From: a virus
Lineage: Duplodnaviria > Heunggongvirae > Uroviricota > Caudoviricetes
Virus record (IMG/VR): IMGVR_UViG_2778261162_000006
Location: 1 to 56,751 of that record
Strand: one strand, 5' to 3'
DNA length: 56,751 bases
The translations under genes and the position numbers were made by a program. The notes below the pieces were generated by a model that saw nothing but the letters and a program-made list of their open reading frames with translations, was not told where the DNA came from and made no database searches. Below, piece by piece: positions 1 through 52,388 of the stretch (positions are counted from its first letter, which is position 1; each line of letters opens with the position of its first letter).

Positions 1-1254
1 ATGCTGGAACAAATGGGCATTGCCGCGAAGCAAGCCTCGTATAAATTAGCGCAACTCTCCAGCCGCGAAAAAAATCGCGTGCTGGAAAAAATCGCCGATG
101 AACTGGAAGCACAAAGCGAAATCATCCTCAACGCTAACGCCCAGGATGTTGCTGACGCGCGTGCCAATGGCCTTGGCGAAGCGATGCTTGACCGTCTGGC
201 ACTGACGCCCGCACGGCTGAAAGGCATTGCCGATGATGTGCGCCAGGTGTGTAACCTCGCCGATCCGGTGGGGCAGGTAATCGATGGCAGCGTACTGGAC
301 AGCGGCCTGCGTCTTGAGCGTCGTCGCGTACCGCTGGGGGTTATTGGCGTGATTTATGAAGCGCGCCCGAACGTGACGGTTGATGTCGCTTCGCTGTGCC
401 TGAAAACCGGTAATGCGGTGATCCTGCGCGGTGGCAAAGAAACGTGTCGCACTAACGCTGCAACGGTGGCGGTGATTCAGGACGCCCTGAAATCCTGCGG
501 CTTACCGGCGGGTGCCGTGCAGGCGATTGATAATCCTGACCGTGCGCTGGTCAGTGAAATGCTGCGTATGGATAAATACATCGACATGCTGATCCCGCGT
601 GGTGGCGCTGGTTTGCATAAACTGTGCCGTGAACAGTCGACAATCCCGGTGATCACAGGTGGTATAGGCGTATGCCATATTTACGTTGATGAAAGTGTAG
701 AGATCGCTGAAGCATTAAAAGTGATCGTCAACGCGAAAACTCAGCGTCCGAGCACATGTAATACGGTTGAAACGTTGCTGGTGAATAAAAACATCGCCGA
801 TAGCTTCCTGCCCGCATTAAGCAAACAAATGGCGGAAAGCGGCGTGACATTACACGCAGATGCAGCTGCACTGGCGCAGTTGCAGGCAGGCCCTGCGAAG
901 GTGGTTGCTGTTAAAGCCGAAGAGTATGACGATGAGTTTCTGTCATTAGATTTGAACGTCAAAATCGTCAGCGATCTTGACGATGCCATCGCCCATATTC
1001 GTGAACACGGCACACAACACTCCGATGCGATCCTGACCCGCGATATGCGCAACGCCCAGCGTTTTGTTAACGAAGTGGATTCGTCCGCTGTTTACGTTAA
1101 CGCCTCTACGCGTTTTACCGACGGCGGCCAGTTTGGTCTGGGTGCGGAAGTGGCGGTAAGCACACAAAAACTCCACGCGCGTGGCCCAATGGGGCTGGAA
1201 GCACTGACCACTTACAAGTGGATCGGCATTGGTGATTACACCATTCGTGCGTAA
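1..1254 (+). CDS. proA: gamma-glutamyl phosphate reductase, full length 417 aa
   Basis: Translation recognised as E. coli ProA over its whole length; ATG at 1, stop at 1252-1254. Confidence 0.95.
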
Positions 1255-1368: not shown

Positions 1369-1444
1369 GCCGATATAGCTCAGTTGGTAGAGCAGCGCAT
1401 TCGTAATGCGAAGGTCGTAGGTTCGACTCCTATTATCGGCACCA
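1369..1444 (+). tRNA. thrW: tRNA-Thr (anticodon CGU)
   Basis: 76-nt sequence GCCGATATAGCTCAGTTGGTAGAGCAGCGCATTCGTAATGCGAAGGTCGTAGGTTCGACTCCTATTATCGGCACCA with GGTTCGA T-loop and 3' CCA; anticodon CGT by position. Confidence 0.9.
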
Positions 1445-1446
1445 TT
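1399..1446 (+). repeat. attL core: 48-bp tRNA 3' segment repeated at 42647..42694
   Basis: ATTCGTAATGCG...CGGCACCATT read directly at both positions. Confidence 0.85.
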
Positions 1447-1458
1447 TAAATCAATAAG

Positions 1459-2622
1459 TTACACATCATTAGTACCTTCCTTATTTTTTGACTGGGACAA
1501 ATTTGGGACCGATGGGTTTAGGATCGAGTCTATTTGCCGTGCGTGTTCGGTAAGGTGATTAGGTGCAAGGTGAGCATATCGACGAACCATTTCGATAGAC
1601 TCCCAGCCTCCCATTTCCTGTAACACTGACAACGGGACTCCGGCTTGAACCAGCCAACTTGCCCAGGTGTGTCTCAAGTCGTGAAATCTGAAATCATCAA
1701 TACCAGCCCGTCTCAGCGCCGCTTTCCAGGCTGTGTTTGCGTCATACCGCATCTTCCTGACTGTTGGCGCTTTCGTTCCGTCTGGTTTGGTACAGCTTTC
1801 CTTGTACACAAATACCCAACGGTGATGATTCCCGATTTGTTTTTTCAATACGCGACATGCAGTATCATTCAGCGCAACGCCAATTGCGCGGTTTGATTTA
1901 CTCTCTTCCGGGTTTATCCATGCCACCCGGCGCTGCATATCTATTTGTTGCCATTCAAGGTTGATGATGTTCGAGCGTCTTAGGCCTGTTGCCAGTGCAA
2001 ATTCAACAACAGACTTTAATGGCTCCGGACATTCATCAATCAGCCTTTGTGCTTCATGGGGCTCCAGCCAGCGGATCCGTTTATTCTTTGGTTGAGGCAC
2101 TTTAATAATTGGTGCCTTATCCAGCATTTTCCATTCACGCTCTGCGGCTCTTAGTAGGGCCTTTATAAATGAAAGATGCGTAGCCTTCGTTGCAACGGAC
2201 GCTGGTTTTGGCGTGTATTCTGGAACAGGTTTCCCTTTTTTTCTGCATGCTTCTGCCCTGAGTTTCCAGTTTTCCTCATGACGCCGGTTCGTCATTTTCT
2301 GCATTGCTGAATAAATTTTTGATTCAGTAATGTCTCTTAGTTGCATTCCTGCGAAATGTTGAAGCCAGAATCCGATCCGGCTTTTGTCATCGTCCAGTGA
2401 TTTTTTATGTGCTTTCTCTTCAAGCCACCTGACACATGCTTCCTCGAACGTTATATCAGGTATTTCACCAAGTTTGCTGACCCGCCATGCTTCAGCCTTT
2501 AGCTTGTCATGGAGTTCTGTCGCCTGCCTTTTGTCCTTTGTTCCAAGAGACTGTTTAAATCTTTTACCGTTCGGCAATGTGAAACTGGCGTACCATATTT
2601 CACCTCTGCGGAAGAGTGACAT
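1459..2622 (-). CDS. Tyrosine-type phage integrase (Rac IntR-like)
   Basis: 387 aa; C-terminal HDLRHTWAS...RRYAH catalytic motifs; N-terminus [14 protein letters not shown] recalled from Rac-type integrases; adjacent to tRNA. Confidence 0.9.
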
Positions 2623-8643: not shown

Positions 8644-9585
8644 ATGAGCACTAAATTAACCGGCTATGTATGGGATGGTTGCGCTGCGTCAGGCATGAAA
8701 TTATCCAGCGTGGCAATTATGGCCCGCCTGGCTGATTTCAGTAATGACGAAGGTGTGTGCTGGCCATCAATTGAAACCATTGCCCGTCAGATTGGCGCGG
8801 GGATGAGTACCGTCAGAACGGCTATCGCACGGCTGGAAGCAGAAGGCTGGTTAACGCGTAAGGCGCGTCGCCAGGGTAACCGCAATGCGTCGAATGTTTA
8901 TCAGCTTAACGTTGCGAAGCTTCAGGCAGCGGCATTTTCTCAACTGTCAGATTCTGACCCGTCAAAATCTGACGCATCAAAATCTGACCCGTCAAAATTT
9001 GATGCGTCGAAATCTGGCAAAAAAGCGGGTTTTCACCCGTCAGAATCTGGCGGGGATCCGTCAGTAAAATCAAAACATGATCCGTCAGATAAAAAAACTT
9101 CTCGTCCGGACGCTTCGCAACCGGACACGCAGACGGCTGAACAGGAGTTTTTAACTCGCCATCCTGATGCGGTTGTATTCAGCCCTAAAAAGCGCCAGTG
9201 GGGAACGCAGGATGATTTGACCTGCGCACAGTGGCTCTGGAAAAAAATCATCGCCCTGTACGAGCAGGCCGCCGAATGTGACGGCGAGGTGGTTCGTCCC
9301 AAAGAACCGAACTGGACAGCCTGGGCAAACGAAATTCGCCTGATGTGTGTGCAGGATGGTCGTACTCACAAACAAATCTGCGAGATGTACAGCCGCGTCA
9401 GCCGCGATCCGTTCTGGTGCCGTAACGTGCTCAGCCCGTCGAAGCTGCGGGAAAAATGGGATGAGCTTTCCCTGCGCTTATCGCCGTCCGTCAGCACGTA
9501 CACAGAAAAACGCGAAGACCCGTACTTCAAAGCCAGTTACGACAACGTGGACTACAGCCAGATCCCGGCAGGATTCAGGGGGTGA
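8644..9585 (+). CDS. Replication initiator (lambda O-like, N-terminal winged-helix)
   Basis: 313 aa; N-terminal HTH region; internal iteron array as in lambda ori. Confidence 0.8.
   Translation: MSTKLTGYVWDGCAASGMKLSSVAIMARLADFSNDEGVCWPSIETIARQIGAGMSTVRTAIARLEAEGWLTRKARRQGNRNASNVYQLNVAKLQAAAFSQLSDSDPSKSDASKSDPSKFDASKSGKKAGFHPSESGGDPSVKSKHDPSDKKTSRPDASQPDTQTAEQEFLTRHPDAVVFSPKKRQWGTQDDLTCAQWLWKKIIALYEQAAECDGEVVRPKEPNWTAWANEIRLMCVQDGRTHKQICEMYSRVSRDPFWCRNVLSPSKLREKWDELSLRLSPSVSTYTEKREDPYFKASYDNVDYSQIPAGFRG
8945..9100. repeat. Origin-like iteron array inside the O-like gene
   Basis: Repeated ~15-bp units TGACCCGTCAAAATC / TGACGCATCAAAATC / CCGTCAGAATCTG / CCGTCAGATAAAAAAA. Confidence 0.7.
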
Positions 9586-9587
9586 TC

Positions 9588-10076
9588 ATGAGTCTTTTGA
9601 ATGAAGTTCAGAAATACATTGAAGCCCATCCGGGGTGTACTTCCGGAGACATTGCGGATGCTTTTGCAGGTTACTCACGGCAGCGCGTTCTGCAGTCAGC
9701 AAGCAAGTTACGTCAGAGTGGGCGTGTGGCTCACCGTTGTGAAGGGGATACACGCAGACATTTCCCGCGCCTGACTGAGAGAGCGCAGGAGGCGGAACCG
9801 CAACCAGTTCGTGAAACCAGACCTGTGCGCAATTTCTATGTCGGCACTAACGACCCGCGGGAGATTTTGTGCCTGACCCGCCAGGCTGAAGAACTGGAGT
9901 CCAGGGGCTTATACCGTCGTGCTGCAACGGTGTGGATGGCGGCATTCCGTGAAAGCCACTCCCAGCCAGAACGAAACAATTTTCTGGCGCGTCGTGAGCA
10001 GTGTTTACGGAAAAGCAGCAAGCGCGCTGTATCGAGTGATGAGTGGTATCTGTCAGGGAATTACGTGGGGGCGTAA
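9588..10076 (+). CDS. PerC-family-like regulator (C-terminal domain)
   Basis: C-terminal AEELESRGLYRRAATVWMAAF matches the E-x-RGLYRRAA-x-W signature also present in the satellite gene at 52101..52388. Confidence 0.55.
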   Translation: MSLLNEVQKYIEAHPGCTSGDIADAFAGYSRQRVLQSASKLRQSGRVAHRCEGDTRRHFPRLTERAQEAEPQPVRETRPVRNFYVGTNDPREILCLTRQAEELESRGLYRRAATVWMAAFRESHSQPERNNFLARREQCLRKSSKRAVSSDEWYLSGNYVGA

Positions 10077-10402
10077 TGACGACGTTAACTCAATGCCAGC
10101 AGCAGGTGCTGGATATGCTGATTTCTTATCAGAAAGAGCGTGGTTTTCCGCCAACCAATCAGGAGGTGGCAACCATGCTGGGATACCGTTCAGTGAATGC
10201 AGCGGTAGAGCATCTTCGCGCACTGGAGAAAAAAGGCGTCATCACGATAAAGCGTGGCGTGGCCCGGGGGATAACGCTTCATACCGCGGTGAAGGACGAC
10301 GACAGCGAGGCGGTCGGGATTATCCGCGCACTGCTTGCCGGTGAGGAAAACGCAAGGCTGCGTGCAACCCACTGGTTACATGAGAGGGGCCTGAAAGTAT
10401 GA
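10076..10402 (+). CDS. LexA N-terminal DNA-binding domain protein (no peptidase domain)
   Basis: TAATG overlap start; QQQVLDMLISYQKERGFPPTNQEVATMLGYRSVNAAVEHLRALEKKGVI resembles the LexA winged helix. Confidence 0.65.
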   Translation: MTTLTQCQQQVLDMLISYQKERGFPPTNQEVATMLGYRSVNAAVEHLRALEKKGVITIKRGVARGITLHTAVKDDDSEAVGIIRALLAGEENARLRATHWLHERGLKV

Positions 10403-10788
10403 AGCTGATCCTGCCTTTTCCGCCCAGCGTGAACACGTACTGGCGACACCCCAACAAAGGGGCGTTTGCAGGTAAGAGCCTGATAAGCGCGGCGGGGCGC
10501 AAATTCCAGAGCGCGGCGTGTGCAGCAATAGTTGAGCAGTTACGTCGTCTGCCAAAACCAACGTCGGCACCTGCTTCAGTGGAGATCGTGTTGTTTCCTC
10601 CGGATAACCGGATCCGCGATCTGGACAACTATAACAAGGCGCTGTTTGACGCCCTGACCCACGCGGGTGTGTGGGAAGACGACAGCCAGGTGAAAAGAAT
10701 GCTGGTGGAGTGGGGACCGGTTATCCCGGAAGGGAAGGTCGAGATCACTATCAGTAAGTACGAGAAAACGGCGGGTGCAGCCGCCTGA
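10399..10788 (+). CDS. rusA: RusA Holliday-junction resolvase
   Basis: 129 aa; DLDNYNKALFDAL acidic motif typical of RusA. Confidence 0.85.
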   Translation: MKLILPFPPSVNTYWRHPNKGAFAGKSLISAAGRKFQSAACAAIVEQLRRLPKPTSAPASVEIVLFPPDNRIRDLDNYNKALFDALTHAGVWEDDSQVKRMLVEWGPVIPEGKVEITISKYEKTAGAAA

Positions 10789-12614: not shown

Positions 12615-12632
12615 TTTTTTCGGAGAAAGGTG

Positions 12633-12995
12633 ATGCGTGATATTCAGATGGTTCTGGATCGTTGGGGAGCATGGGCGGCGAGTGATAGTTCAGGAGTAGA
12701 TTATTCTCCTATAGCTGCTGGGTTTAAAGGGCTTCTTCCCTATACAAGCAAAACACGTCAGGCTTGTTCAGATAGTGATGCATTAATTATTGAAGGTTGT
12801 CTTGCACGTCTAAAGCAAAAAAGACCTGATGAGCATTCGCTTCTTGTGGCACATTATTTATACAGAATATCCAAGCGTAAGATTGCAAAGGCGCGTGGAA
12901 AGGATGAGAAACTAATACGCATTGAGATACAGATGGCTGAGGGGTTTATTGATGGATGCCTTTCAATTCTGGATGTTAAACTTGAAATGGATTAG
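12633..12995 (+). CDS. Late-gene antiterminator Q
   Basis: ~120 aa; position upstream of late region; ATG after GGAGAAAGG. Confidence 0.7.
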   Translation: MRDIQMVLDRWGAWAASDSSGVDYSPIAAGFKGLLPYTSKTRQACSDSDALIIEGCLARLKQKRPDEHSLLVAHYLYRISKRKIAKARGKDEKLIRIEIQMAEGFIDGCLSILDVKLEMD

Positions 12996-13007: not shown

Positions 13008-13883
13008 TTAAGCCGGGGATGTTTCAGATTGAAGTGTTTTTTTCTTGGGCTCGTTCTTAGATGATTTTGTTTTCTTTTGACGATTGAGTTTTTTCTCTTT
13101 GCGTCTGTCAATATAATCGTCCCACCAATCAGGTTTTACTGTTGGGACGATTCTGCAAATATCAGCAATTGCAACAACAATGTTGCTCGATTGCACTCCA
13201 TCGACGTGCTCTGCCAGTGAGGGAGGAACTTGTTGGTTCATTGGATCGAGGATAAAATCCACACCCTTTATACGGGCATGTTTAGCGGCAGGAACGAAAT
13301 CAGCATCGCCAGCAATCAGGACGATCACATCAACTAGTTTCTCATGAGCAAGGATAGTTATATCCATACCAAGCTTAATATCGACGGCTTTTTGTTTATA
13401 TTCGTAGTAGAAATCGTCGTTAGTTAACTCAGACCATTGAATTTCATTACGTAATAGTTTCTTAAGAGTATGTTCTTTTATTTGCCAGTTACCGACGTTT
13501 GAAAGAATACCCATACGAAGTGCCGTTTTACGATTCTTCCTTAGCTCCTCATGAAGCTTGTTTCGTAAAACATTCGGAGCATGTGTCTTGAAGTTTTTAG
13601 TTGATGGGGTTTTGTTGTCTCCATCAGGCAAAGGATACTTAATCTGTTTATCAAGCGGCGGGCAGTCGTAATAGTAAATACGGTAAAGCTCAAGTGGTTC
13701 ACGGTCAGCGTGAGCACCATGTGGAACCTCTACATGAAATTTAACAATTCGCCAGATTATTTTAACAAGTTGTTGGCTGTCTAACTCATGCCCAGGGAAA
13801 TGTTTTCGTAGAAAGTAATCAATCCGACGGATGAAGTAGCCGCCGTCAATCAAGACTGCTGTTTTCTTCATTGAAAAACTCAC
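13008..13883 (-). CDS. NYN/PIN-like domain protein with Lys-rich C-terminal tail
   Basis: VIVLIAGDADFVPAAKHARIKG acidic motif typical of NYN/LabA-like nucleases; opposite orientation to flanking late genes. Confidence 0.65.
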   Translation of the reverse strand: MSFSMKKTAVLIDGGYFIRRIDYFLRKHFPGHELDSQQLVKIIWRIVKFHVEVPHGAHADREPLELYRIYYYDCPPLDKQIKYPLPDGDNKTPSTKNFKTHAPNVLRNKLHEELRKNRKTALRMGILSNVGNWQIKEHTLKKLLRNEIQWSELTNDDFYYEYKQKAVDIKLGMDITILAHEKLVDVIVLIAGDADFVPAAKHARIKGVDFILDPMNQQVPPSLAEHVDGVQSSNIVVAIADICRIVPTVKPDWWDDYIDRRKEKKLNRQKKTKSSKNEPKKKTLQSETSPA

Positions 13884-14625: not shown

Positions 14626-15678
14626 ATGAAAAATACTGTAAAAATAAACAGTGTTGATTTAATCAACGCTGATTGCCTGCATTTTATTCAGTCCCTGCCT
14701 GATGATTCCATTGACCTGATTGTTACCGATCCGCCGTACTTCAAGGTGAAACCCAACGGCTGGGACAATCAGTGGAAAGGGGACGAAGATTACCTTAAGT
14801 GGCTGGACCACTGTCTGGCCCAGTTCTGGCGGGTGTTAAAACCTGCCGGAAGCCTTTACCTGTTCTGTGGGCATCGCCTGGCATCTGATATTGAGATCAT
14901 GATGCGTGAACGTTTCAACGTGCTTAACCATATCATCTGGGCGAAGCCGTCCGGACGTTGGAATGGGTGTAATAAAGAAAGTCTGCGCGCATATTTTCCT
15001 GCCACAGAGCGCGTTCTGTTTGCTGAACATTACCAGGGGCCATATCGCGGCAAAAGTGACGGCTATGCGGCAAAAGAAAGGGAACTCAAACAGCACATAA
15101 TGGCACCGCTGATATCGTATTTCAGGGATGCTCGTGCCGAACTGGGTATAACGGCAAAACAAATTGCCGAAGCCACAGGTAAGAAAAATATGGTTTCCCA
15201 CTGGTTTGGTGCCAGTCAGTGGCAGTTGCCGAATGAGGCTGACTATCGGAAGTTACAGGCACTGTTTTCCCGTATAGCGGCAGAGAAGTTTCAGGAACAA
15301 CAACTGGAACAACCACACCACCAGCTGGTGGCATCTTATGATTCACTGAATCGCAAATATTCTGAATTGCTGGATGAGTTTAAATCTCTCCGGCGCTATT
15401 TCTCCGTATCAGTCTCCGTGCCTTATACCGATGTCTGGACGCATAAGCCCGTTCAGTTCTACCCGGGTAAACATCCGTGCGAGAAACCGGCGGATATGCT
15501 CCGGCAAATAATCAATGCCAGTAGTCGACCTGGTGATCTGGTTGCTGATTTCTTTATGGGATCCGGTTCCACAATAAAAGCAGCAATGGCGCTGGGGCGT
15601 CGGGCGTTAGGTGTTGAACTTGAGTCAGAGCGGTTTAATCAGACGGTGAAAGAGGTAAGTGAACTGGTGGGGAAATAA
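14626..15678 (+). CDS. DNA methyltransferase, beta-class amino-MTase (likely N6-adenine)
   Basis: Motif IV DPPY (TDPPYF) near N-terminus and motif I FFMGSGST near C-terminus. Confidence 0.85.
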   Translation: MKNTVKINSVDLINADCLHFIQSLPDDSIDLIVTDPPYFKVKPNGWDNQWKGDEDYLKWLDHCLAQFWRVLKPAGSLYLFCGHRLASDIEIMMRERFNVLNHIIWAKPSGRWNGCNKESLRAYFPATERVLFAEHYQGPYRGKSDGYAAKERELKQHIMAPLISYFRDARAELGITAKQIAEATGKKNMVSHWFGASQWQLPNEADYRKLQALFSRIAAEKFQEQQLEQPHHQLVASYDSLNRKYSELLDEFKSLRRYFSVSVSVPYTDVWTHKPVQFYPGKHPCEKPADMLRQIINASSRPGDLVADFFMGSGSTIKAAMALGRRALGVELESERFNQTVKEVSELVGK

Positions 15679-15754
15679 TTCTGGTGGCCACGTTGCGTGG
15701 CCTTTTTATTTCCAACACAGCACCCGCAAATATCGCGAGGTGAGAGATGACGAA

Positions 15755-16081
15755 ATGCCTCATAACCCAAATACCTGGCTGGACTTGGTCCAGAGCTGGT
15801 GGCGTGGAGACACACCGCTGGGTGCAGTGATTATGTCGATCGTTATGGCTGGTTTGCGCATCGCCTATTTTGGCGGTGGTGGTGGCTGGAAGCGAAAAAC
15901 GCTCGAAATTCTACTCTGTGGCGCTCTGACGCTGACTTTTGCATCCGCTCTTGAGTATGTCGGATGGCCTAAATCACTTTCTGTTGCCATTGGTGGTGGG
16001 GTGGGGCTGATCGGTGTCGATGCTATTCGTGGGGCTGCAATGCGAGTAATCGGTAACAAATTTGGTGGCTCTAAGGAGTAA
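15755..16081 (+). CDS. Holin
   Basis: ~108 aa from internal ATG; hydrophobic TM segments; directly upstream of endolysin. Confidence 0.7.
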   Translation: MPHNPNTWLDLVQSWWRGDTPLGAVIMSIVMAGLRIAYFGGGGGWKRKTLEILLCGALTLTFASALEYVGWPKSLSVAIGGGVGLIGVDAIRGAAMRVIGNKFGGSKE

Positions 16082-16084
16082 TTT

Positions 16085-16561
16085 ATGCAGGTACTAAATT
16101 CCCAGCGTAAAGCTTTCCTTGATATGGTGGCTTGGTCAGAAGGAACGGATAACGGACGACAACCGACACGTAACCACGGTTATGACGTTATTGTCGGTGG
16201 TGAACTCTTCACTGATTACTCCGATCACCCTCGCAAACTTGTCACGCTAAACCCGAAACTCAAGTCAACAGCCGCCGGACGTTACCAGCTTCTTTCACGC
16301 TGGTGGGATGCTTACCGTAAACAGCTTGGCCTGAAAGATTTTTCTCCAGAAAGCCAGGACGCTGTAGCTCTGCAGCAGATTAAAGAGCGTGGCGCTTTAC
16401 CGATGATTGACCGTGGCAATATTCGTCAGGCAATCGACCGTTGCAGCAATATTTGGGCTTCATTGCCCGGTGCTGGCTACGGTCAGTATGAACACAAGAT
16501 CGATAGTCTGATTGCCAAATTCAAAGAAGCTGGCGGGGTGGTTAATGAAACTTCGCTATAA
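16085..16561 (+). CDS. Endolysin, lambda R-like lytic transglycosylase
   Basis: Near-identity over most of its length to recalled lambda R sequence (QRKAFLDM...AWSEGTDNGRQ...YDVIVGGELFTDYSDHPRK). Confidence 0.9.
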   Translation: MQVLNSQRKAFLDMVAWSEGTDNGRQPTRNHGYDVIVGGELFTDYSDHPRKLVTLNPKLKSTAAGRYQLLSRWWDAYRKQLGLKDFSPESQDAVALQQIKERGALPMIDRGNIRQAIDRCSNIWASLPGAGYGQYEHKIDSLIAKFKEAGGVVNETSL

Positions 16562-16937
16562 GCTGGTTATTTCTGCTTTCCTCCTGACTTTATTCGGTTC
16601 TCTCGTCTGGTCAGCTAACCACTACCACAGCAAATACCAGCGCGAAAAGAAACGTGCTGATGAGGCTGTACAAAATGCCGAATCGGCAACCGCTATTACC
16701 AATAACGTCCTGCAATCACTGCAAATCGTCAATACAGTTCTGGAGGCTAACCAGCATGCAAAACAGCAGATCGCACTGGAGTCACAGAGAACCCAGGCTG
16801 ATATCAAAGTGGCTGTTGCGGATGATGATTGTGCTGTACGCCCTGTGCCTGCTGCCGCTGCTGACCGGTTGCGGAAGTACGCGAACAGTTTACGTGAGCA
16901 TTCCGAAGACTCCACTACCAGTCAGCTTGACTTCTGA
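16545..16937 (+). CDS. Rz-like i-spanin
   Basis: N-terminal TM helix then coiled-coil-like periplasmic domain; overlaps endolysin 3' end. Confidence 0.7.
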   Translation: MKLRYKLVISAFLLTLFGSLVWSANHYHSKYQREKKRADEAVQNAESATAITNNVLQSLQIVNTVLEANQHAKQQIALESQRTQADIKVAVADDDCAVRPVPAAAADRLRKYANSLREHSEDSTTSQLDF

Positions 16938-17781: not shown

Positions 17782-17838
17782 TTCATCAAGCCCCATTCAA
17801 TATGGGGTTTTTATGCTTATTACAAAGAGTTTTCTTCA

Positions 17839-18189
17839 ATGCCACCACGAATCCCAAAATCCTGCCGCGTTCGCGGCTGCCGCCATACCACTACTGACCC
17901 GTCAGGCTACTGCGAAAGCCACAAAAGCGAAGGCTGGAAGCAATACAAGCCAGGACAATCCCGTCATCAGCGCGGCTACGGTTCGAAATGGGATGCTATC
18001 CGTGAACGTGTACTGAAACGTGACAAAGGTTTATGTCAGTTATGTCTGCGTGCCGGTGTGGTGCGTGAAGCGAAAACCGTTGACCACATCATCCCTAAAG
18101 CGCATGGCGGCACTGATGCCGACTGTAATCTGCAGAGTCTGTGCTGGCCGTGTCATAAGGCGAAGACGGCCCGTGAACGGTTGAAGTGA
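17839..18189 (+). CDS. HNH endonuclease
   Basis: Cys pairs and DHIIPKAHGG...CHKAK motif; immediately upstream of terminase. Confidence 0.85.
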   Translation: MPPRIPKSCRVRGCRHTTTDPSGYCESHKSEGWKQYKPGQSRHQRGYGSKWDAIRERVLKRDKGLCQLCLRAGVVREAKTVDHIIPKAHGGTDADCNLQSLCWPCHKAKTARERLK

Positions 18190-39530: not shown

Positions 39531-42284
39531 CTATTTGATTGCTGCATTGATTCGTTTATATCTTTGGGTAAAGGCCTCTTTGCCACCTTCCATCACTCGG
39601 CATATCTCATCGCGTATGGAAGGTTCTTGAAGACCCCCTTGCGCCACAATTCTGGTTTGACCAGACCGAATATCAAGGGCAATGACGTTTTCCGCGTCAC
39701 CATTCACGACGATGTTAGCGTTGTGCGTGACTACTAAAACCTGCCGTTTTTGTTTGATCTCACGCAATTGCGTCACGATAAGATCATAGATTAAGTGGTT
39801 ATCAAGATCATCCTCAGGCTGATCAAGTATAAGAGGCTCATTGCCATATGAAAGGATAAATGCAAGGAGAGCCGCCGTTTTTTGCCCCGGAGATCCTTGC
39901 TCTACGGGTTTGAAACTCTCGCCGTTCTTGAGGCTATATCTGATATCCAGAGAATCGCCTGGAAACCAGCACTGAATTCGATCTATCTGTTCCGGAGTTA
40001 GCCCCTGAATGAGGGATACAAAACGTCGATCTTTGCAGGATTCCACCGCCATAGTATCGTTTTCATGGATTGCAAGTAGCGATGATTTTATTTTCTCAAT
40101 TTTATCATCCATAGTATTGGATTGGTCTTGCGTTAAATAAGCCAGCAAGCCCTCATCCCCGTCAACAACTCCAATGTCGCGGTCAAATCCGCCACCACTG
40201 CGGCCGATCAGGTTACGGAATTCTTCCTCAACCGTAATCTTGTTTCCAAACGGAATGACATTGATCTGTACATATGAATTGCCGACGAGAGTATCCTTGA
40301 GAAAGTCCTCACGAAGTTTGGTTATCAATGCTCGATGCTCATGGAGTTTGACCAAGTATTCTTCCGCGCTCTTCTGATGCTGCGCAAGAGTTTCTCTCTT
40401 TTTGTCGAATCCCTTGAGCTTATCTTCGAAATCTTGTCGCTGCTTAACCAGAACACCATATGCAGATGGATCACCTGCGTCTGCTGCGCTGAGTTGACCG
40501 AGGAGGGCGTTGTATTCATGGCTCGCCGCTGTAATTCTTTTCGATATTCCCAAGTCTGATCGAGTTTGATTCCATGAGTTCTTCACATCATCAATCCGCT
40601 GCGCGATCGAGTTCATCTCTGTCTGAAGCTTCTCAAACGTCGCACGGATGTCCTTGATGGTATCGAAGAGTTCTTTGTCATCCGCATTCCCAATGTCGAA
40701 ATATTGTAAATCCAATTCTGCTGGCAGTAGGCTTCCAGAAATATCTCGGACCTGTTCGGCGGAATCCTCCCAAGTCGTTACCCAGGAGTCCATAGCCTTA
40801 CTCTGGTTCTGTCTGAGTTGGTAAGCCTTAAGGACATCCGCGTGGCCCGCCTTTTCAAAAACATCGAGTTTGCGTTTGACGTCTTCAAGCTGACCTTTGG
40901 TTACCGATTCTTCCTGAAGCCCAGCCTGAACTTCACGCTCTTGGGCGCGAAGCGAGAGATATTTGGAAACCAGTTCATCCCACTTAAGCTGCCAATCACG
41001 ATGATTGACCTCCGGGGCATCATCGACAACCTGCAAGAGTGCTTGGGGATGCTTTGCCAATTCGAATATCTGTTTCTGGCTGTAAATCCTGACAGGAAAT
41101 CGTTGTGCTATGTCTCCCTCGGAATCACACCAGACTCCGGGAGCGGTCTCTTCCTCGATGCTGTATATGTCGTCGGTATTAGACCAGGTGATTCGGAAAC
41201 GGCCACCGTCTTTTCGAAAGCCTACAGTTATTTTCGTGGAATCTTTTAACAGCCCTTCATCTTGGCGGTCTTTCGAAGTTTGACTGTATTTGGTAAATTC
41301 CTTTTCAAGGCTCTTGGGGATTTCTCCCTTTCGTTTAAGAGCAATCCGCAGGAATTCCAACGAAGTCGATTTCCCAGTGCCTCGTCCACCAATGATAGTG
41401 TTGAGCCAGGGGTTCAGTTGACAAGTTAAAGATTGCCCTCGTCCTAAGTACTTCGCATCATCAACCACGATACTTTCGATGGCAAGTTGTCCATGGATAT
41501 TTGGGTCACCAGTGAAGTTGTCCGACCGCTTCAGTGAAAGAGCCCCATCAACGAGCGCCAGCCGTAATCCGTCATAAGATGGCTCCGACATTTTTACCCA
41601 AGTGAAATGGCTACCCGGGTAGCGTTGATTTCCGGTACCGGACGGATGATGGGAATCGGTTCCAAGAATCTCTGCCCAATTCAAATTCTTGCCAATATAG
41701 AGCTGCGGTTTTGCTTTAGCAAGGTCCGTTACCTCCATAGCAAAAACACATTTGTTGTCAAGCACCTGCTCTAGTGTGTTGCCCGTACAGACCGTAAAAA
41801 GTCCGCTAGCCTGATCTACATGAGCAGGTATTGCAAGTCCTCCTGACCTAGCAATTTCGTCGATCACCTCAACTGCTGAGCATTCAGAGCAGCCGTCGCT
41901 CTTTCCTTTGGTGCCGCGATACCTGACCGCACCAAGCAGTGAGTCGATATCAGAGGTTGTCTTGTCTTCGCCGAAAATGGCCAGAATATGGATATTCCCC
42001 TGAACAGTAAGCTCAACACCTGGGAATAAGTAGAGTGGTCGATAATCTTCATGACTCTCAGATGCCAGTTCCTTGAGTGCCTGCTTGAGCGGATCAATCC
42101 AAGCGCCTGAATTATGGTCCGTGACAGCGACACAATCGATGCCTTGTCGCATGTAGTTGAGCAGCCAATCTTTATGAGTGATCTGCATATACTGGGCCTG
42201 ATTAGGGCCTTTTCCATAATCGTCCGATGCCGGAGTGTGATTATGGAAGTCGAATTTCCACCACCGAGAACCAATCCAGTTCAT
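39531..42284 (-). CDS. PHP phosphoesterase fused to SMC/Rad50-like ABC ATPase with coiled-coil (Ppl-like defence protein candidate)
   Basis: N-terminal FDFHNHTPASDDYG, VAVTDHN, IPAHV, GTDSHH PHP motifs; Walker A GGRGTGKST; signature-like SPGQKTAALLA; Walker B LILDQPEDDLD; H-loop VLVVTHN; long E/K/Q-rich insert between Walker A and B. Confidence 0.75.
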   Translation of the reverse strand: MNWIGSRWWKFDFHNHTPASDDYGKGPNQAQYMQITHKDWLLNYMRQGIDCVAVTDHNSGAWIDPLKQALKELASESHEDYRPLYLFPGVELTVQGNIHILAIFGEDKTTSDIDSLLGAVRYRGTKGKSDGCSECSAVEVIDEIARSGGLAIPAHVDQASGLFTVCTGNTLEQVLDNKCVFAMEVTDLAKAKPQLYIGKNLNWAEILGTDSHHPSGTGNQRYPGSHFTWVKMSEPSYDGLRLALVDGALSLKRSDNFTGDPNIHGQLAIESIVVDDAKYLGRGQSLTCQLNPWLNTIIGGRGTGKSTSLEFLRIALKRKGEIPKSLEKEFTKYSQTSKDRQDEGLLKDSTKITVGFRKDGGRFRITWSNTDDIYSIEEETAPGVWCDSEGDIAQRFPVRIYSQKQIFELAKHPQALLQVVDDAPEVNHRDWQLKWDELVSKYLSLRAQEREVQAGLQEESVTKGQLEDVKRKLDVFEKAGHADVLKAYQLRQNQSKAMDSWVTTWEDSAEQVRDISGSLLPAELDLQYFDIGNADDKELFDTIKDIRATFEKLQTEMNSIAQRIDDVKNSWNQTRSDLGISKRITAASHEYNALLGQLSAADAGDPSAYGVLVKQRQDFEDKLKGFDKKRETLAQHQKSAEEYLVKLHEHRALITKLREDFLKDTLVGNSYVQINVIPFGNKITVEEEFRNLIGRSGGGFDRDIGVVDGDEGLLAYLTQDQSNTMDDKIEKIKSSLLAIHENDTMAVESCKDRRFVSLIQGLTPEQIDRIQCWFPGDSLDIRYSLKNGESFKPVEQGSPGQKTAALLAFILSYGNEPLILDQPEDDLDNHLIYDLIVTQLREIKQKRQVLVVTHNANIVVNGDAENVIALDIRSGQTRIVAQGGLQEPSIRDEICRVMEGGKEAFTQRYKRINAAIK

Positions 42285-42646: not shown

Positions 42647-42694
42647 ATTCGTAATGCGAAGGTCGTAGGTTCGACTCCTATTATCGGCACCATT
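42647..42694 (+). repeat. attR core (copy of tRNA-Thr 3' end); also the tRNA-proximal att of the downstream satellite
   Basis: Identical 48 bp to 1399..1446. Confidence 0.85.
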
Positions 42695-42858: not shown

Positions 42859-44073
42859 GTGAAACTCAATGCCCGTCAAATAGACACTGCCAAGCCAAAA
42901 GAGAAGGCTTACAAGCTGGCTGATGGTGGTGGTCTGTATCTCTTGGTAAAACCTAGTGGAGGAAAATATTGGCGCTTCAAGTATCGTGTAGCTGGTAAAG
43001 AGAAGCTGTTAGCACTAGGTGTGTATCCTGAAGTTACCTTGGCTGATGCTCGTGCAAAACGTGAAGAAGCTAAAAGGGGTATCGCTGGGGGTATCGATCC
43101 GATGGAAGCGAAACGAGAGGAAAAGATTGCCCGGGAAACGCAGTTAAACAACACCTTCAAAGATATTGCCCTTGAGTGGCACAGCAGCAAATTAAAAAAA
43201 TGGTCTGCTGGTTATGCTTCAGACATCCTCGAAGCCTTTAACAAAGATGTGTTCCCTTACATTGGCAAAAAACCAATCGCCGAAATCAAACCACTTGAAC
43301 TGCTGAATGTGCTGCGGCGCATCGAGGGGCGCGGTGCTACCGAAAAAGCCAAAAAAGTGAGGCAGCGATGTGGGGAAGTTTTCCGCTATGCAATTGTCAC
43401 TGGACGTGCTGAGTATAACCCTGCACCGGATCTCACCAGCGCGATGCAAGGTCATGAATCTAATCATTATCCTTTCCTCACAGCCAAAGAATTACCTGAT
43501 TTTTTCAAGGCATTGTCCAGTTACTCAGGAAGTGCATTGGTTGTTATGGCGGCTCGTTTACTGATTATCACCGGTTTGCGGACTGGCGAACTGCGCGGTG
43601 CATTATGGGATGAAATCGATCTCAACAAGGCTATCTGGGAGATACCTGCTTCACGGATGAAAATGCGTCGCCCTCATGTAGTGCCTTTGTCTGAGCAGGC
43701 TCTTTCGCTTATTGGGCAGATTAAAGAACTAACTGGCAATTATCCGCTTATGTTTCCCGGCCGTAATGATCCAAGGAAAACAATGAGCGAGGCTAGCATA
43801 AACCAAGTATTTAAACGCATCGGCTATAACGGAAAGGTTACTGGTCATGGCTTCCGGCACACTATGAGCACCATTTTGCATGAGCAGGGCTATAACACCG
43901 CGTGGATAGAGACACAGCTTGCGCACGTCGATAAAAACTCAATTCGTGGCACATACAACCATGCGCAATATCTGGATGGGCGGCGGGAAATGCTTCAGTG
44001 GTACGCTGATTATATGGATTCGCTCGAGCATGGCGGAAATGTGGTGCATGGTGAGTTCGGAAAATGCGGGTGA
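42859..44073 (+). CDS. P4-type tyrosine integrase
   Basis: 404 aa; GTG start after GGAGG; GHGFRHT and catalytic Tyr region; N-terminal arm-binding domain. Confidence 0.9.
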   Translation: MKLNARQIDTAKPKEKAYKLADGGGLYLLVKPSGGKYWRFKYRVAGKEKLLALGVYPEVTLADARAKREEAKRGIAGGIDPMEAKREEKIARETQLNNTFKDIALEWHSSKLKKWSAGYASDILEAFNKDVFPYIGKKPIAEIKPLELLNVLRRIEGRGATEKAKKVRQRCGEVFRYAIVTGRAEYNPAPDLTSAMQGHESNHYPFLTAKELPDFFKALSSYSGSALVVMAARLLIITGLRTGELRGALWDEIDLNKAIWEIPASRMKMRRPHVVPLSEQALSLIGQIKELTGNYPLMFPGRNDPRKTMSEASINQVFKRIGYNGKVTGHGFRHTMSTILHEQGYNTAWIETQLAHVDKNSIRGTYNHAQYLDGRREMLQWYADYMDSLEHGGNVVHGEFGKCG

Positions 44074-45226: not shown

Positions 45227-45424
45227 ATGTCAAATACGCTTATTCGTTTAACAGAAGTTCAGCGTAGAACTGGATATAGCAAGGCATGGATTTATCGCCT
45301 TATGGGGCAAGGTAAATTTCCTGCATCAGTTAAAATTGGCTCGCGAGCTATTGCTTTCGTTGAGAGTGAAATTGACGAGTGGATTAATCAGCGTATTGCG
45401 GAATCACGCGGAACAGCTACCTGA
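45227..45424 (+). CDS. alpA: AlpA-family transcriptional regulator/excisionase
   Basis: 65 aa; LTEVQRRTGYSKAWIYRLMGQGKFP HTH typical of AlpA. Confidence 0.85.
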   Translation: MSNTLIRLTEVQRRTGYSKAWIYRLMGQGKFPASVKIGSRAIAFVESEIDEWINQRIAESRGTAT

Positions 45425-45501: not shown

Positions 45502-46302
45502 ATGAAATTTCCAAAAACGCCCGTACAGGGGCGGGGCTTCGTTCGGCCTGAAAACCAGAATCTGCAAAATTTCGGCGAAATTATCCCGGTTATTTCCGGC
45601 ATTATTGGCGGGTGTGAAACCAATATTGTTAGCGCCAGAGCGTTGCATAAGGCGTTAGGTGTAGGTCGCGTTTTCCGTTCGTGGATCAAGGGGCGCATTG
45701 AAGAATACGGCTTCACGGAAGGCGTGGATTATGAGGTTGTTGAATATTTGAGCCGACCCGATCCGGTGAGCGCAAAATCTCGCCAGCAAACAGCTCTTGA
45801 GTACATCATTACCGTGAACATGGCAAAAGAACTGGCGATGGTCGAACGCACCGAACAGGGCCGCGCCGTTCGCCAGTACTTCATCAAATGCGAGGAGGAG
45901 CTACACAAGGTAGCGCCAGTGCGTTCCGCAGCTTTACGCCGGGAACTGAAAGCCCGTATCACCGTTGCCAGCTACTTTAAGCCAATGTGTGCCGCGCTGG
46001 AGGCGTACCGGGCTGAACTGGGTAAAAACACGCTCCAGCACCATTACACCACGGAAGCCAATATGCTGGCGCGTATCGTGCTGGGTGGCATGACTGCAAA
46101 ACAGTGGGCGCAGGCGAACGGCATCACAGGCGAACCACGCGACCACATGAGCACATTGCAGCTTGAGCACCTTTCTTACCTTGAGCAGAGCAATATCACG
46201 CTGATTGAGTTAGGCCAGGACTACCACCAGCGGAAAGCTGAATTAATTCGTCTTTCGCAGCGTTGGTTAGCCCGTCGCATGGAGGAAAACAGCCATGTGT
46301 AA
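45502..46302 (+). CDS. Phage antirepressor (AntA/KilAC-like)
   Basis: 266 aa; recollection-based family match. Confidence 0.6.
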   Translation: MKFPKTPVQGRGFVRPENQNLQNFGEIIPVISGIIGGCETNIVSARALHKALGVGRVFRSWIKGRIEEYGFTEGVDYEVVEYLSRPDPVSAKSRQQTALEYIITVNMAKELAMVERTEQGRAVRQYFIKCEEELHKVAPVRSAALRRELKARITVASYFKPMCAALEAYRAELGKNTLQHHYTTEANMLARIVLGGMTAKQWAQANGITGEPRDHMSTLQLEHLSYLEQSNITLIELGQDYHQRKAELIRLSQRWLARRMEENSHV

Positions 46303-46968
46303 CGCTCTGACCGTTACAAAAAGAGAAAGCGCCCCGTTGCCGGAGCGCCTTTGTGAACAAATCGCTTACTGCGCCATATTGTTTACTGCCTTTCGGGCAG
46401 ATTATAGCGTTGTGGTCGCACAGAGTGAAGGCGCTGATCACTGTTACTACAGTACGCCAGAAATGCAGAATATTTTGCTGCAAAATGCCGTTAGCCACGC
46501 TGTCCGGAAAGCAAAAAATTTTGCTGGTGGCGCGACTGATGCGATTTTGTCAGGTCACCAGGTGCTGATCAATCTGATGTCTGATTTCGTTCTGGATAAA
46601 ACAAAGGCGACTGCAGAGGGCCACCAGTGGGAAAGCTACACACTTGAACACATTGCCAACAATGCCAGATTTGCGGCTGGTGGGCAATGTGATCAGTGTG
46701 CTGGCTTGCTGGTGGGCTATTCATGCTCTTTAACATTGCCATGCCGCGATGTTTTCCAGGTATGCGATCCCATTTTTGTGCGCCTGTACTCTTTAAGGAA
46801 TTGCTCAAGGGCAAAAGCACATGGCGCGAATCTTTCTGATTCATGCTCTATCTTTCTGCGCCGTCTTTTCCGTGCCGGTGATGGTGTATTGGTTGATTCT
46901 TTGTTGGTCATTCTGTGTACCTGTAAAGCAATGCGCCGGAGTTCCTCACACCACGGCGATGATAGTTA

Positions 46969-47274
46969 TTATTCTGATTCTTTGGCCTTGCGGCGCTGGA
47001 GTTCTTCACGTGCGACGGTGACGAGCTGCCCGATCTCCTCGGCAGCTTTGACTCCGATTTTTTCCACCTGCGCCAGCGCATCGAGCGAAGAAACTAGGGG
47101 ATTTTCTCCGCTTCCTTCTGCCTGGCGGCGGGCGATCTCACCGCGCATGGCGGTTACTATGAATCCGGCGTTGCTTTCACCGTCCAGTTTTACGGATTCC
47201 ATGCCTTCAAAAGCATCATGTGGGATACGAATTGAAATCTGTTTTGATTTGTCGTTGATAGTGTTTTTTGCCAT
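46969..47274 (-). CDS. Hypothetical regulator-like protein (101 aa)
   Basis: ATG after GGAG; divergent from 47462 gene across operator-bearing intergenic region. Confidence 0.55.
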   Translation of the reverse strand: MAKNTINDKSKQISIRIPHDAFEGMESVKLDGESNAGFIVTAMRGEIARRQAEGSGENPLVSSLDALAQVEKIGVKAAEEIGQLVTVAREELQRRKAKESE

Positions 47275-47294
47275 GTGCATTCTCCTAAACAAAA

Positions 47295-47375
47295 GATGTG
47301 ATTCAGTATACACAAAAAAGAATCACAAAAAATACTTGACCTGTGATTCAGTTAAATTTAATTTAAATCACACCT
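47295..47375. promoter_or_regulatory. Operator-like sites in divergent promoter region
   Basis: TGTGATTCAG x2 direct, GAATCACA and AAATCACAC inverted. Confidence 0.55.
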
Positions 47376-47461
47376 CAGTAAGAGGATGTAAACGACAACG
47401 CCCCGAACTGTTTGCGGCAGTAGCGGGGCGTCTAACCAAACCGTTAAATGAGGTAACGATT

Positions 47462-47827
47462 ATGGCTGGAACACAGCATACCCAAACTCACCCTAAATTT
47501 ATATACACCTTCCTGGCGGTGCACCGTGATTGCATAGCTGACGGTAAAAACACTGTACACGTAGCTGCTGATACGCTGGTTGATGCCTGCGAGATGCTCA
47601 ATGACATGGGCTATATCTCGGCAACATGGAAAGGGCGCGAAGAAAACACGCTGTTTATTCAGAAATGCGAGAACAATTTTATCTGGCGTTTTATCGCCCT
47701 GAGCACAGCACAACCGCGCGTAATTCACATCGAGGCCACCAGCGAACAGGAAGCACGCCAGCAATCCCCTGATGGCTGCGTGATGGTATTCGCTGCCCGT
47801 ATTCGCCAGGAGGTGGAGCATGTGTAA
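47462..47827 (+). CDS. Hypothetical protein (121 aa)
   Basis: ATG after GAGGTAACG; part of the long composite ORF 46295..47827. Confidence 0.55.
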   Translation: MAGTQHTQTHPKFIYTFLAVHRDCIADGKNTVHVAADTLVDACEMLNDMGYISATWKGREENTLFIQKCENNFIWRFIALSTAQPRVIHIEATSEQEARQQSPDGCVMVFAARIRQEVEHV

Positions 47828-48825: not shown

Positions 48826-49116
48826 ATGAAAAAGAAAAATTCTGGCTTTACTGCCAGCGGCCTCTCTCGGCCTGAAATCCGCCCCGGTGATATTTTCCGG
48901 GACACCAGACGCGGGGGACGGGTGGTTATTCGTCACGTTATGCCAGGCAATATCACCTACCGCCGTGAGGCTTACGAATATGACTGCGTAATGCCGCGCC
49001 GTCAGTTTGAGCGTGATTTTATTCTGGTTGAAAACAAACAACAGGCGGTGGCGAGACGTGCAGCCACGAATATTAAAAAAATCCGGGCAATGTTGGTTGC
49101 GGGAGGTAAGAAGTGA
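48826..49116 (+). CDS. Hypothetical basic protein (96 aa)
   Basis: ORF upstream of primase. Confidence 0.5.
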   Translation: MKKKNSGFTASGLSRPEIRPGDIFRDTRRGGRVVIRHVMPGNITYRREAYEYDCVMPRRQFERDFILVENKQQAVARRAATNIKKIRAMLVAGGKK

Positions 49117-51233: not shown

Positions 51234-51581
51234 ATGTTTCTTGAAGCTATACCCAAAAATATTTCGCCAGCGGTTCAGGGTTGGTGGGCAAAATTCAGGA
51301 ATGATAATGGCAACGACTGGTATAGTCCGATTGCAGCATGGGCGATTTGTGATGTGTTTTATTCTGGTGATTCAGAAATTTATTCTGAAATATTACCGAT
51401 TCTTACTGGTGAGTATGGAATGGCACCGTATCATCAGGAAGATGGTTTTTACGAATGCATGTATTTGCCAAACACAAAATTCATTCTTTCTGATGAACCT
51501 GGATCATTTGCGTGGTATCCGGTAGATGAAAGTGCCGGGCATGAAACAATCAGTAAAAACGATGGGGCAAAGCATGACTAA
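51234..51581 (+). CDS. Hypothetical protein (115 aa)
   Basis: ORF with ATG after G-rich RBS. Confidence 0.5.
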   Translation: MFLEAIPKNISPAVQGWWAKFRNDNGNDWYSPIAAWAICDVFYSGDSEIYSEILPILTGEYGMAPYHQEDGFYECMYLPNTKFILSDEPGSFAWYPVDESAGHETISKNDGAKHD

Positions 51582-52104
51582 GCTGACCATTAACAGAAAA
51601 CCGAAAGGCATTTACGGCACGCCGCAGAAAACGACGCAGGCGGCACAGGAGCAGGATAAAACCACGTCGGCGCATAAAGTGATGCCCGGTAACCAGAAAG
51701 CGCAGCAGAAGCCCACAGGGGCGACACCGTGGCGGCATATGACCAAGCGCCAGCGCAAAAACCGCAGGCGCATTAACCGCCTCACTGAGTTGTGGCCTGA
51801 ATTATTCAGCCGGGAAGCACCGAAGCCGCTTAAGGTGGGGATATTCGACGACCTGATGCAGGATCTCGCCGTCAGGGGGCTGGCATTCGGTCCAGGGGCA
51901 TTGCGTGCGACGCTGGCATCTTATGCACAGTGTCCGCGCTATTACCGCGCCTTAATGGCTGGTGGGGTACGCTACGACCTGAAAGGCCAGCCGTGCGGCG
52001 AGGTGACACCACAGGAACAACAGGACGCAGAAACGCGGCTGGTGGCGCTGAATGAGAAGCGCAAACGTCAGCGCCGGGTAGCAAAGGAGAAAACAGGCGC
52101 ATGA
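51574..52104 (+). CDS. ProQ/FinO-family RNA-binding protein
   Basis: RRRINRLTELWPELF...PKPLKVGIFDDL...ALRATLASYAQCPRYYRAL matches the FinO-domain pattern. Confidence 0.7.
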   Translation: MTKLTINRKPKGIYGTPQKTTQAAQEQDKTTSAHKVMPGNQKAQQKPTGATPWRHMTKRQRKNRRRINRLTELWPELFSREAPKPLKVGIFDDLMQDLAVRGLAFGPGALRATLASYAQCPRYYRALMAGGVRYDLKGQPCGEVTPQEQQDAETRLVALNEKRKRQRRVAKEKTGA

Positions 52105-52388
52105 TTCACGACAGCAAAGCGGAAGCACTGGAAGCGCGTGGCCTGTACCGGAGAGCGGCGGCGCGGTGGGCTGAGGTCATCATGCTGGCGAATGATGACA
52201 AGGCACGGGAACAGGCGGCAAAACGTCGCGCGGAATGTATCCGCAAGGCAGCACGCCCACCAGCACGGCAGGATAATTTCGGGGAGATGCGCGAAACCAT
52301 CAGCCGGGCACATGCCGGGATGGGATTACATCAGCCCAATGGTAAGGCATTCAGGAAATACCCTGGATCGAAAAATTGCAGTCAGTGA
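52101..52388 (+). CDS. PerC-family transcriptional regulator
   Basis: EALEARGLYRRAAARWAEV signature. Confidence 0.7.
   Translation: MIHDSKAEALEARGLYRRAAARWAEVIMLANDDKAREQAAKRRAECIRKAARPPARQDNFGEMRETISRAHAGMGLHQPNGKAFRKYPGSKNCSQ

Follow-up and report, generated by a model that had tools for sequence, protein, structure and literature searches.

The window analysed here, a stretch of 56,751 nucleotides, carries two adjacent mobile elements, a prophage and a satellite, and each encodes a protein of the PerC family. The question raised by this locus is whether the pair reflects regulatory interplay between the elements, as the preliminary description had proposed, or simply the independent presence of two common genes. 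Both open reading frames are on the + strand, at 9582/9588..10076 in the prophage and at 52101..52388 in the satellite. The PerC-like signature reported for them in the preliminary description was borne out by a profile search: given the gathering score of 22.6 bits for the Pfam model PF06069, the prophage protein scores 39.4 bits over residues 100-154, and the whole of the satellite protein aligns with 111.6 bits. RefSeq names both proteins "PerC family transcriptional regulator". Aligned with each other by BLASTP, they are 36% identical over 55 residues (E-value 4e-10). The window was translated in six frames, and every stop-to-stop segment was compared with a home-made PerC profile of 65 diverse members. 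Exactly two open reading frames match, that of the satellite (E-value 2.3e-38) and that of the prophage (3.1e-20), with no third copy. Matches to the regular expression G[LFIM][YFW]RRA across the window are likewise confined to these two frames. By profile and pairwise comparison, the similarity of the two proteins is true homology and not chance.

The signature itself says little about the relation between the elements. In the prophage protein, AEELESRGLYRRAATVW occupies residues 102-118 (numbered from GTG 9582; nucleotides 9885..9935), that is, the C-terminal third of the protein and not its very C-terminus, where it had been placed before. In the satellite protein, EALEARGLYRRAAARW occupies residues 8-23 (nucleotides 52122..52169). 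Both proteins were aligned with PerC (BfpW), PchABC, PchE and YfdN-type proteins from Salmonella, Citrobacter and Hafnia. This alignment contains 14 invariant columns: A7, E8, L10, E11, G14, L15, R17, R18, A19, A20, W23, R36, R43 and C46 in the satellite numbering. Ten of them (L10, E11, G14, R17, R18, A19, A20, W23, R43 and C46) are conserved in at least 90% of 65 PerC representatives drawn from clusters at 50% identity, and all ten are found in both window proteins. Thus, as far as the alignments tell, the common string GLYRRAA..W is the invariant core that defines the PerC family and not a token of exchange. Since it is invariant throughout the family, it does not indicate any special link between the prophage and satellite genes. 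The family is small, as a profile search of 1.84 billion representatives yielded only 430 clusters at E<=1e-3. Within it the two proteins are assigned to separate PHROG families, phrog_1324 and phrog_994. The satellite protein (95 aa) is of the stand-alone size class of about 90 aa, and the prophage protein belongs to the two-domain YfdN subfamily, with lengths of about 140-165 aa.

The window opens with proA (1..1254) and the tRNA-Thr gene thrW (1369..1444, predicted by ARAGORN). The left copy of a 48-bp att repeat, recognised through an exact 25-mer repeat, consists of the 3' part of thrW and two additional nucleotides (1399..1446, + strand). The second copy is an exact repeat at 42647..42694 (+ strand), where the prophage ends and the satellite begins. 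The adjacency of the elements thus follows from their common integration site, the 3' end of thrW. The terms "prophage" and "satellite" of the preliminary description are correct, given the att repeats, the gene content and an EcCIMP1-like integrase in the satellite.

The element between the att copies is, by its sequence relationships, a lambdoid prophage of the SfII/SfIV/CPS-53 type. Many E. coli phages, as well as SfII and SfIV of Shigella, are 97-99% identical to it at the nucleotide level in the early region. It carries an integrase gene (1459..2622, - strand; Pfam Phage_integrase, 3.2e-48), an S24 repressor gene and a CII-like gene. The PerC gene of the prophage (9582..10076, + strand) is preceded by an O-like replication-initiation gene (8644..9585, + strand; Pfam HTH_36, 4.2e-11), which is called O or primosomal protein in relatives. 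It is directly followed by a gene encoding only a LexA DNA-binding domain (10076..10402, + strand), then rusA (10399..10788, + strand), a KilA-N gene, a DUF968/HNH gene and Q (12630..12995, + strand). The genes are tightly packed: the start of the PerC gene overlaps the stop of the O-like gene, and the start of the lexA-type gene overlaps the stop of the PerC gene (ATGA). The order lexA-type gene, rusA, Q is also observed in SfIV and in Salmonella prophages.

By its matches to PF06069 and phrog_1324 and its identity to RefSeq genes, the prophage gene is the yfdN orthologue of phages of the SfII/SfIV/CPS-53 type. It has 100% nucleotide identity to RefSeq E. coli genes annotated "yfdN: PerC family transcriptional regulator", the protein matches phrog_1324, "transcriptional activator", at 1.2e-76, and clusters named CPS-53 prophage protein or PerC family have about 94-98% protein identity to it. 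YfdN from the K-12 prophage CPS-53 (KpLE1) and gp42 of SfIV have the same length, 164 aa. SfIV gp42, annotated as PerC family, is the counterpart of the window gene also by synteny (gp41-gp43), with the O-like gene upstream and the lexA-type gene and rusA downstream. In some relatives a dam methylase gene lies beside yfdN, whereas the window prophage does not have it. Homologous DNA is present in 2668 of 5426 complete E. coli genomes (about 49%). In K-12, yfdN is the sole PerC homologue (PMC5931665).

The public annotation starts the gene at GTG 9582, which gives a product of 164 aa. However, ATG 9588, giving 162 aa, is at least as likely a candidate start, as distant YfdN homologues nearly all begin with MSL, and AGGGGG is found 5 nt upstream of this ATG.

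The two-domain layout is conserved in 25 distant YfdN homologues (24-46% identity). Firstly, there is an N-terminal block, MSLxxxVQxFIxxHPGxTSxxIAxAF. Secondly, a variable linker leads to the PerC core. Finally, the proteins end in a short C-terminal tail with a conserved glycine, WYLSGNYVGA in the window protein. A single-sequence AF2 model of the 164-aa prophage protein (mean pLDDT 64.7, medium confidence) agrees with this layout. The N-terminal domain (residues ~3-62, 9588..9767, + strand) is predicted to contain helices 5-15, 21-27 and 33-45 (pLDDT about 70) in an arrangement typical of helix-turn-helix proteins. Residues 50-88 are modelled as a disordered linker of roughly 40 residues. 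The PerC core (residues 92-144, 9855..10013, + strand), delimited by the model and the invariant residues, has predicted helices 92-107, 111-124 and 128-144 with pLDDT 78-89. The matches of the N-terminal domain to known profiles are weak but convergent: phrog_1687 at 5.5e-5 and BilQ at 2.5e-4 for the window protein, and Penicillinase_R, HTH_24 and MarR_2 for its homologues. Together with the model they suggest a winged-helix-like domain of the MarR/BlaI type. A representative search also returned a class of proteins apparently consisting of the N-terminal domain only. These are 48-97% (mostly 64-97%) identical to the YfdN N-terminus and then continue into unrelated sequence or a methylase fragment, and the class was rejected as frameshifted or fused gene calls.

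The satellite carries the gene for a P4-type integrase with an Arm-DNA-bind_3 domain (42859..44073, + strand), 97% identical to the integrase of EcCIMP1. It encodes a regulator of the AlpA family (45227..45424, + strand; Pfam Phage_AlpA, 69.4 bits), AntA, and a replication module in which a DUF4222 gene (48826..49116, + strand) precedes a D5-type primase/helicase gene assigned by profile (49113..50885, + strand). A ProQ/FinO-family gene (51526..52104, + strand; PF04352, 84.3 bits) and the PerC gene follow. Beyond them are two candidates for interference with packaging or morphogenesis, a DUF2213 head-protease-like gene (53446..54117, + strand) and a small-terminase-like HTH gene (54124..54651, + strand). 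At the right end there are two unknown open reading frames in a tail of 33% GC, for which PADLOC returned no defence system. Gene content and profile annotation revealed neither lysis nor tail genes in the island. The satellite is about 14 kb long, and in a related genome it ends just beyond what is here the window edge. The integrase, AlpA and primase/replication module, the size within the 10-15 kb class, the specific att site and the absence of lysis and tail genes identify it, at the level of gene content, as a Gram-negative PICI-type island.

The satellite PerC gene (52101..52388, + strand) is present in 180 of 5426 complete E. coli genomes as this allele. Its product is, by sequence, closest to EHEC PchE, a group 3 PerC homologue: the named PchE protein of 54 aa has 91% identity to it, and this stretch spans the three-helix core, whereas the satellite protein has an extra C-terminal helix and a tail. 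Named "PerC (BfpW)" and "PchABC family" proteins are 69% and 64% identical to it. EPEC PerC (BfpW) and EHEC PchA/B/C (group 1) share with it the Pfam family, the size class and the invariant core. PerC-family genes from plasmids have about 46-48% identity. The stand-alone type was found on 191 plasmid records and is nearly absent from deposited phage genomes, with two weak matches among 50,697 records.

The start of the satellite PerC gene overlaps the stop of the ProQ/FinO gene (ATGA), which suggests translational coupling. In all matches listed, the two genes are annotated side by side. A hairpin resembling an intrinsic terminator (52428..52468, + strand; 12-bp stem with seven GC pairs and a T-run, found by a consensus scan only) is located 40 nt past the PerC stop codon. 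Thus the PerC gene is likely to close the replication operon, ahead of the packaging module.

The best studied relative of the satellite is EcCIMP1 of E. coli MP1, a PICI at proA-thrW that was mobilised experimentally by a helper phage, Kapi1 (PMC11773190). It is an island of the same kind at the same site, and its almost identical integrase and the common layout make it plausible that the satellite could also be mobilised by a helper phage. The PerC genes are less similar. EcCIMP1_025 is also a stand-alone PerC-family gene, but it has only 46% identity to the satellite gene, occupies another position in the island and does not have a ProQ/FinO partner. It represses LEE1, as shown in Citrobacter rodentium (PMC11773190). 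PerC genes are common in Gram-negative PICIs (PMC11773190, PMC6092414), although they are variably present among EcCIMP1-like elements (PMC11773190).

Either element can also be found alone. TUM9757 has only the satellite at thrW, and the yfdN-type gene without the satellite is present in the free phage genomes SfII and SfIV. The exact prophage-satellite junction was found at full length in only one other complete genome. The same tandem exists in F9792, where the satellite PerC gene is a frameshifted pseudogene. There is no DNA similarity between the prophage and the satellite, and apart from PerC the only protein match between them at E<1e-3 is a marginal one of 27 residues (2.6e-4).

AF2 models suggest that the PerC core folds into a three-helix TPR-like unit, in which the common signature would cover helix 1, the turn and helix 2. 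The satellite protein was modelled with pLDDT 82.5 and helices 5-12, 16-29, 33-50 and 61-73. The TPR-like matches returned by Foldseek for this very small predicted domain have non-significant E-values, and a search by sequence for a relative of PerC proteins with a solved structure found none.

The family also appears to be linked to the ANR regulators. While PF06069 is matched by 65 of the 65 PerC representatives, 50 of them also match the NCBIfam model ANR_neg_reg (NF033650) at E<=0.01, the best E-value being 6.3e-12. The prophage protein matches it over residues 98-144 (22.3 bits, 8.8e-5), below the curated cutoff of 32 bits; the satellite protein has no match at E<=0.001, and thus neither window protein reaches the cutoff. 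ANR proteins such as Aar and Rnr are small and all-helical, with three predicted helices and a cysteine in helix 3 (PMC4038620, PMC4983702). The three-helix AF2 models and the conserved cysteine C46 of PerC proteins are similar to this. ANR proteins are described as smaller than 10 kDa and had 39-80 aa in a 2014 survey (PMC4038620), compared to 95 aa in the satellite protein. They are anti-activators of AraC/XylS regulators and modulators of H-NS, bind AraC-type activators and H-NS (PMC4983702, PMC5570504) and oligomerise via helices 2-3 (PMC4983702). Judged from profile overlap, the PerC and ANR families are related, but not identical. ANR matches of PerC were noted in passing in the EcCIMP1 study (PMC11773190).

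The position of the two genes within their elements is analogous. Further satellites (L006-L008) and further prophages (L009-L011) likewise have a PerC gene 3' of the replication module. In capsid-forming PICI-like islands, a homologue with 67% identity to the satellite protein is encoded at the equivalent place, flanked by SSB on one side and by the capsid, protease, portal and terminase genes on the other. In Salmonella prophages, yfdN follows O-like or lambda-P-like genes and precedes dam, the lexA-type gene, rusA and Q, and the same post-replication position is observed in a contig with a more distant homologue. On the other hand, in EcCIMP1 and in one other element, L005, the PerC gene is elsewhere and does not adjoin the packaging module. 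The local GC content around both window genes is 52-55%, compared to 33-41% in the cargo regions.

All these observations are best explained, with a probability of roughly 75%, by two independent copies of PerC, each standard in its own element and brought together by the common thrW site. The two members would have been acquired independently, one by each mobile element; this is implied by the low identity (36% over 55 residues), the lack of DNA similarity, the different PHROG families and the fact that each element is found alone. The prophage copy would be a delayed-early gene between the replication gene and the lexA-type, rusA and Q genes. The satellite copy would be the last gene of the PICI replication operon, followed by the terminator and then the packaging module. 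No specific interplay of helper and satellite would be needed to explain the pair.

As for the mechanism under this explanation, homologues suggest that the PerC core, rather than reading DNA through a classical fold, probably acts on transcription through the remodelling of H-NS/StpA/Hha silencing complexes, as Pch does. The group 1 proteins, PerC and Pch, lift the silencing by H-NS and thereby activate the LEE1/ler promoter; for Pch, this activation of LEE1 requires the H-NS/StpA/Hha complex, and H-NS occupancy is lowered by Pch (PMC4764244). An alternative route could be binding of other regulators, as in the sequence-related ANR/Aar proteins. However, the Pch study found no co-precipitation of Pch with H-NS and reported that Pch binds DNA in vivo (PMC4764244), and thus a purely protein-binding role of the core is uncertain. 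Whether the result is activation or repression would depend on the PerC allele, and in the phage version the winged-helix domain would probably supply DNA targeting. By analogy with these relatives, both window proteins are most likely small helical proteins that modulate complexes of nucleoid-associated proteins or of regulators, with an effect that differs between alleles.

Of the other readings, the one that survives best, although it is doubtful, is that both genes are accessory "morons" that re-programme the LEE, curli/csgD, flagella or fimbriae of the host and have no role in the life cycle of the elements. Such host effects are documented, namely activation of ler by PerC and PchA-C, repression of csgD and an effect on flhDC by PchE, and silencing of LEE1 by EcCIMP1_025 (PMC6265319, PMC7369912, PMC11773190, PMC5293775). 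Moreover, the perC genes of PICIs are viewed as accessory or virulence genes (PMC6092414). However, both genes are situated within core operons, with overlapping start and stop codons, and not at the ends of the elements or in AT-rich slots. This embedding, the conserved post-replication position and the ordinary GC content argue somewhat against pure cargo status. That K-12 has yfdN as its only PerC homologue (PMC5931665) also speaks against such a role. The window contains no LEE. Most E. coli with yfdN lack LEE as well.

Another possibility, an unlikely one, is that PerC proteins anti-silence or co-activate the late and packaging genes of their own elements, the effects on host virulence being secondary. 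The order of replication module, PerC and morphogenesis or late genes, conserved in PICI-like and capsid-forming elements and in lambdoid prophages from several genera, is consistent with this, as is the separation of the satellite gene from the packaging module by the terminator and a gap of 400 bp. Horizontally acquired DNA is also a natural target of H-NS (PMC4764244). However, Gram-negative PICIs already have a master activator, AlpA (PMC11773190, PMC6092414). It also speaks against this reading that perC varies among EcCIMP1-like islands (PMC11773190), is a pseudogene in F9792 and is not beside the packaging module in EcCIMP1 and L005.

Even less probable is the interplay put forward in the preliminary description, in which the YfdN-type and satellite proteins act on the same partner or promoters or form hetero-oligomers, so that one element senses or tunes the other, for example by the satellite mimicking an early regulator of its helper. 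Apart from the PerC domain, no protein homology between the two elements is clearly significant; the core residues of this domain are invariant between the two proteins, which would be enough to share a partner, and the ANR relatives oligomerise through helices 2-3. Both genes directly follow a replication module, the tandem of prophage and satellite at thrW recurs, and EcCIMP1 shows other cross-talk with its helper (PMC11773190). However, the motif is the family-invariant core, and the adjacency follows from the common att site. With yfdN in about half of the genomes and PerC common in PICIs, co-residence is expected by chance; even the satellite allele is frequent enough for this. Each element occurs without the other, the exact junction is rare, and the satellite gene is broken in the F9792 tandem. 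Finally, the characterised relative EcCIMP1 uses a different helper, Kapi1.

A broader version, which we consider equally improbable, is that PerC proteins are not virulence cargo but conserved TPR-like adaptors of the phage and satellite life cycle; they would share ancestry with the ANR anti-activators, and their genes would always directly follow those for replication. Under this reading the two-domain version of the helper and the stand-alone version of the satellite could compete for, or co-assemble on, one host partner, e.g. H-NS/StpA/Hha. If this were true, satellites could read or distort the early-gene signalling of their helpers. The last reading, a chance resemblance or a recent copy between the elements, has only the short identical string in its favour, and chance is excluded by the independent PF06069 matches and the pairwise E-value, and recent transfer by the protein divergence and the lack of nucleotide similarity.

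Thus the finding as it stands re-discovers two PerC genes that public E. coli genomes already annotate as such and that the literature discusses, and it is no surprise that they occur together. The additions are modest: the two-domain architecture of YfdN-type proteins, the TPR-like model, the fact that many PerC proteins also match the ANR profile, and the recurring place of the genes after replication modules. Some caution is needed with the name "PerC family transcriptional activator", which is inherited from EPEC. Activation of LEE1/ler, the source of this name, is not a general property of the family, as PICI-borne and group 2/3 homologues mostly do not activate LEE1 (PMC6265319, PMC11773190), and PchE represses csgD/curli and affects flagella/flhDC with little or no effect on LEE (PMC6265319, PMC7369912). 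Since relatives activate, repress or do nothing at LEE, it would be wrong to read either window gene as a virulence activator. A first real functional test of YfdN, a protein encoded in approximately half of complete E. coli genomes, could be designed with the help of the side observations made here.

The prophage PerC-family regulator gene, of the yfdN type, is directly followed on the plus strand by a gene (10076..10402), with an ATGA overlap between the two. The encoded protein of 108 amino acids consists of the LexA DNA-binding domain alone, lacking the S24 peptidase domain, and could be a non-cleavable LexA-box binder. The gene is conserved: Shigella phage SfIV has it, as do prophages that are less closely related (L011). 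In many relatives the yfdN-type gene adjoins a dam-type N6-adenine methylase gene (SfII, Kati and prophage L009, 5525..6178, were compared), which lies 5' of it in SfII-like phages and 3' of it in Salmonella prophages. No such methylase gene is found beside the yfdN-type gene in the window prophage (junction 9585..9588) or in SfIV. Some database proteins are fusions of YfdN with the methylase or with RusA; these probably result from frameshifts or miscalls.

The slot between the prophage Q gene and the lysis region is occupied by different genes in relatives, e.g. by a KAP NTPase gene in L009. Here it contains, on the minus strand, a gene encoding an NYN-domain protein, a putative RNase (13008..13883). 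It lies within a patch of 41% GC and is a moron-like insertion. The att-proximal end of the prophage encodes, also on the minus strand, a PHP-plus-AAA ATPase of 917 amino acids (39531..42284). It was matched by PADLOC to the anti-phage protein Ppl (2.3e-157) and scores above the cutoff of the NCBIfam TrlF-family model (651 bits vs 350). The prophage seems to carry this gene as defence cargo.

In the satellite, perC appears to be translationally coupled to a gene for a ProQ/FinO-family RNA-chaperone-like protein (51526..52104, plus strand). Among the matches listed, they are annotated as a pair in all genomes with this perC allele. In other satellites (L006-L008), the ProQ/FinO slot is occupied by SSB instead. 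In the related tandem array of E. coli F9792 (locus L003), both the satellite perC (17802..18090) and the primase gene (15089..16893) are frameshifted pseudogenes, and this island copy is in decay.

The similarity of the satellite ORF of 510 amino acids at 46295..47827 (plus strand) to phage "transcriptional repressor" PHROGs is confined to the final ~50 residues. Related islands are annotated with a number of small genes across this region, some on each strand (YlcI/YnfO, Icd-like), so the long ORF is probably not a real gene. The right end of the satellite is the usual PICI slot for cargo or defence, and contains two plus-strand ORFs (55144..56751; phrog_13337 and phrog_8999) in a stretch of 33% GC. 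PADLOC yielded no significant match for these two ORFs.

The integrases of the prophage (1459..2622, minus strand) and the satellite (42859..44073, plus strand) have no BLASTP similarity detectable at E<1e-3. They share a 48-bp att sequence at thrW, present in two copies (1399..1446 and 42647..42694), hence the tandem arrangement of the two elements. Comparable prophage-satellite tandems are present in strains F9792 and UPEC_U013.
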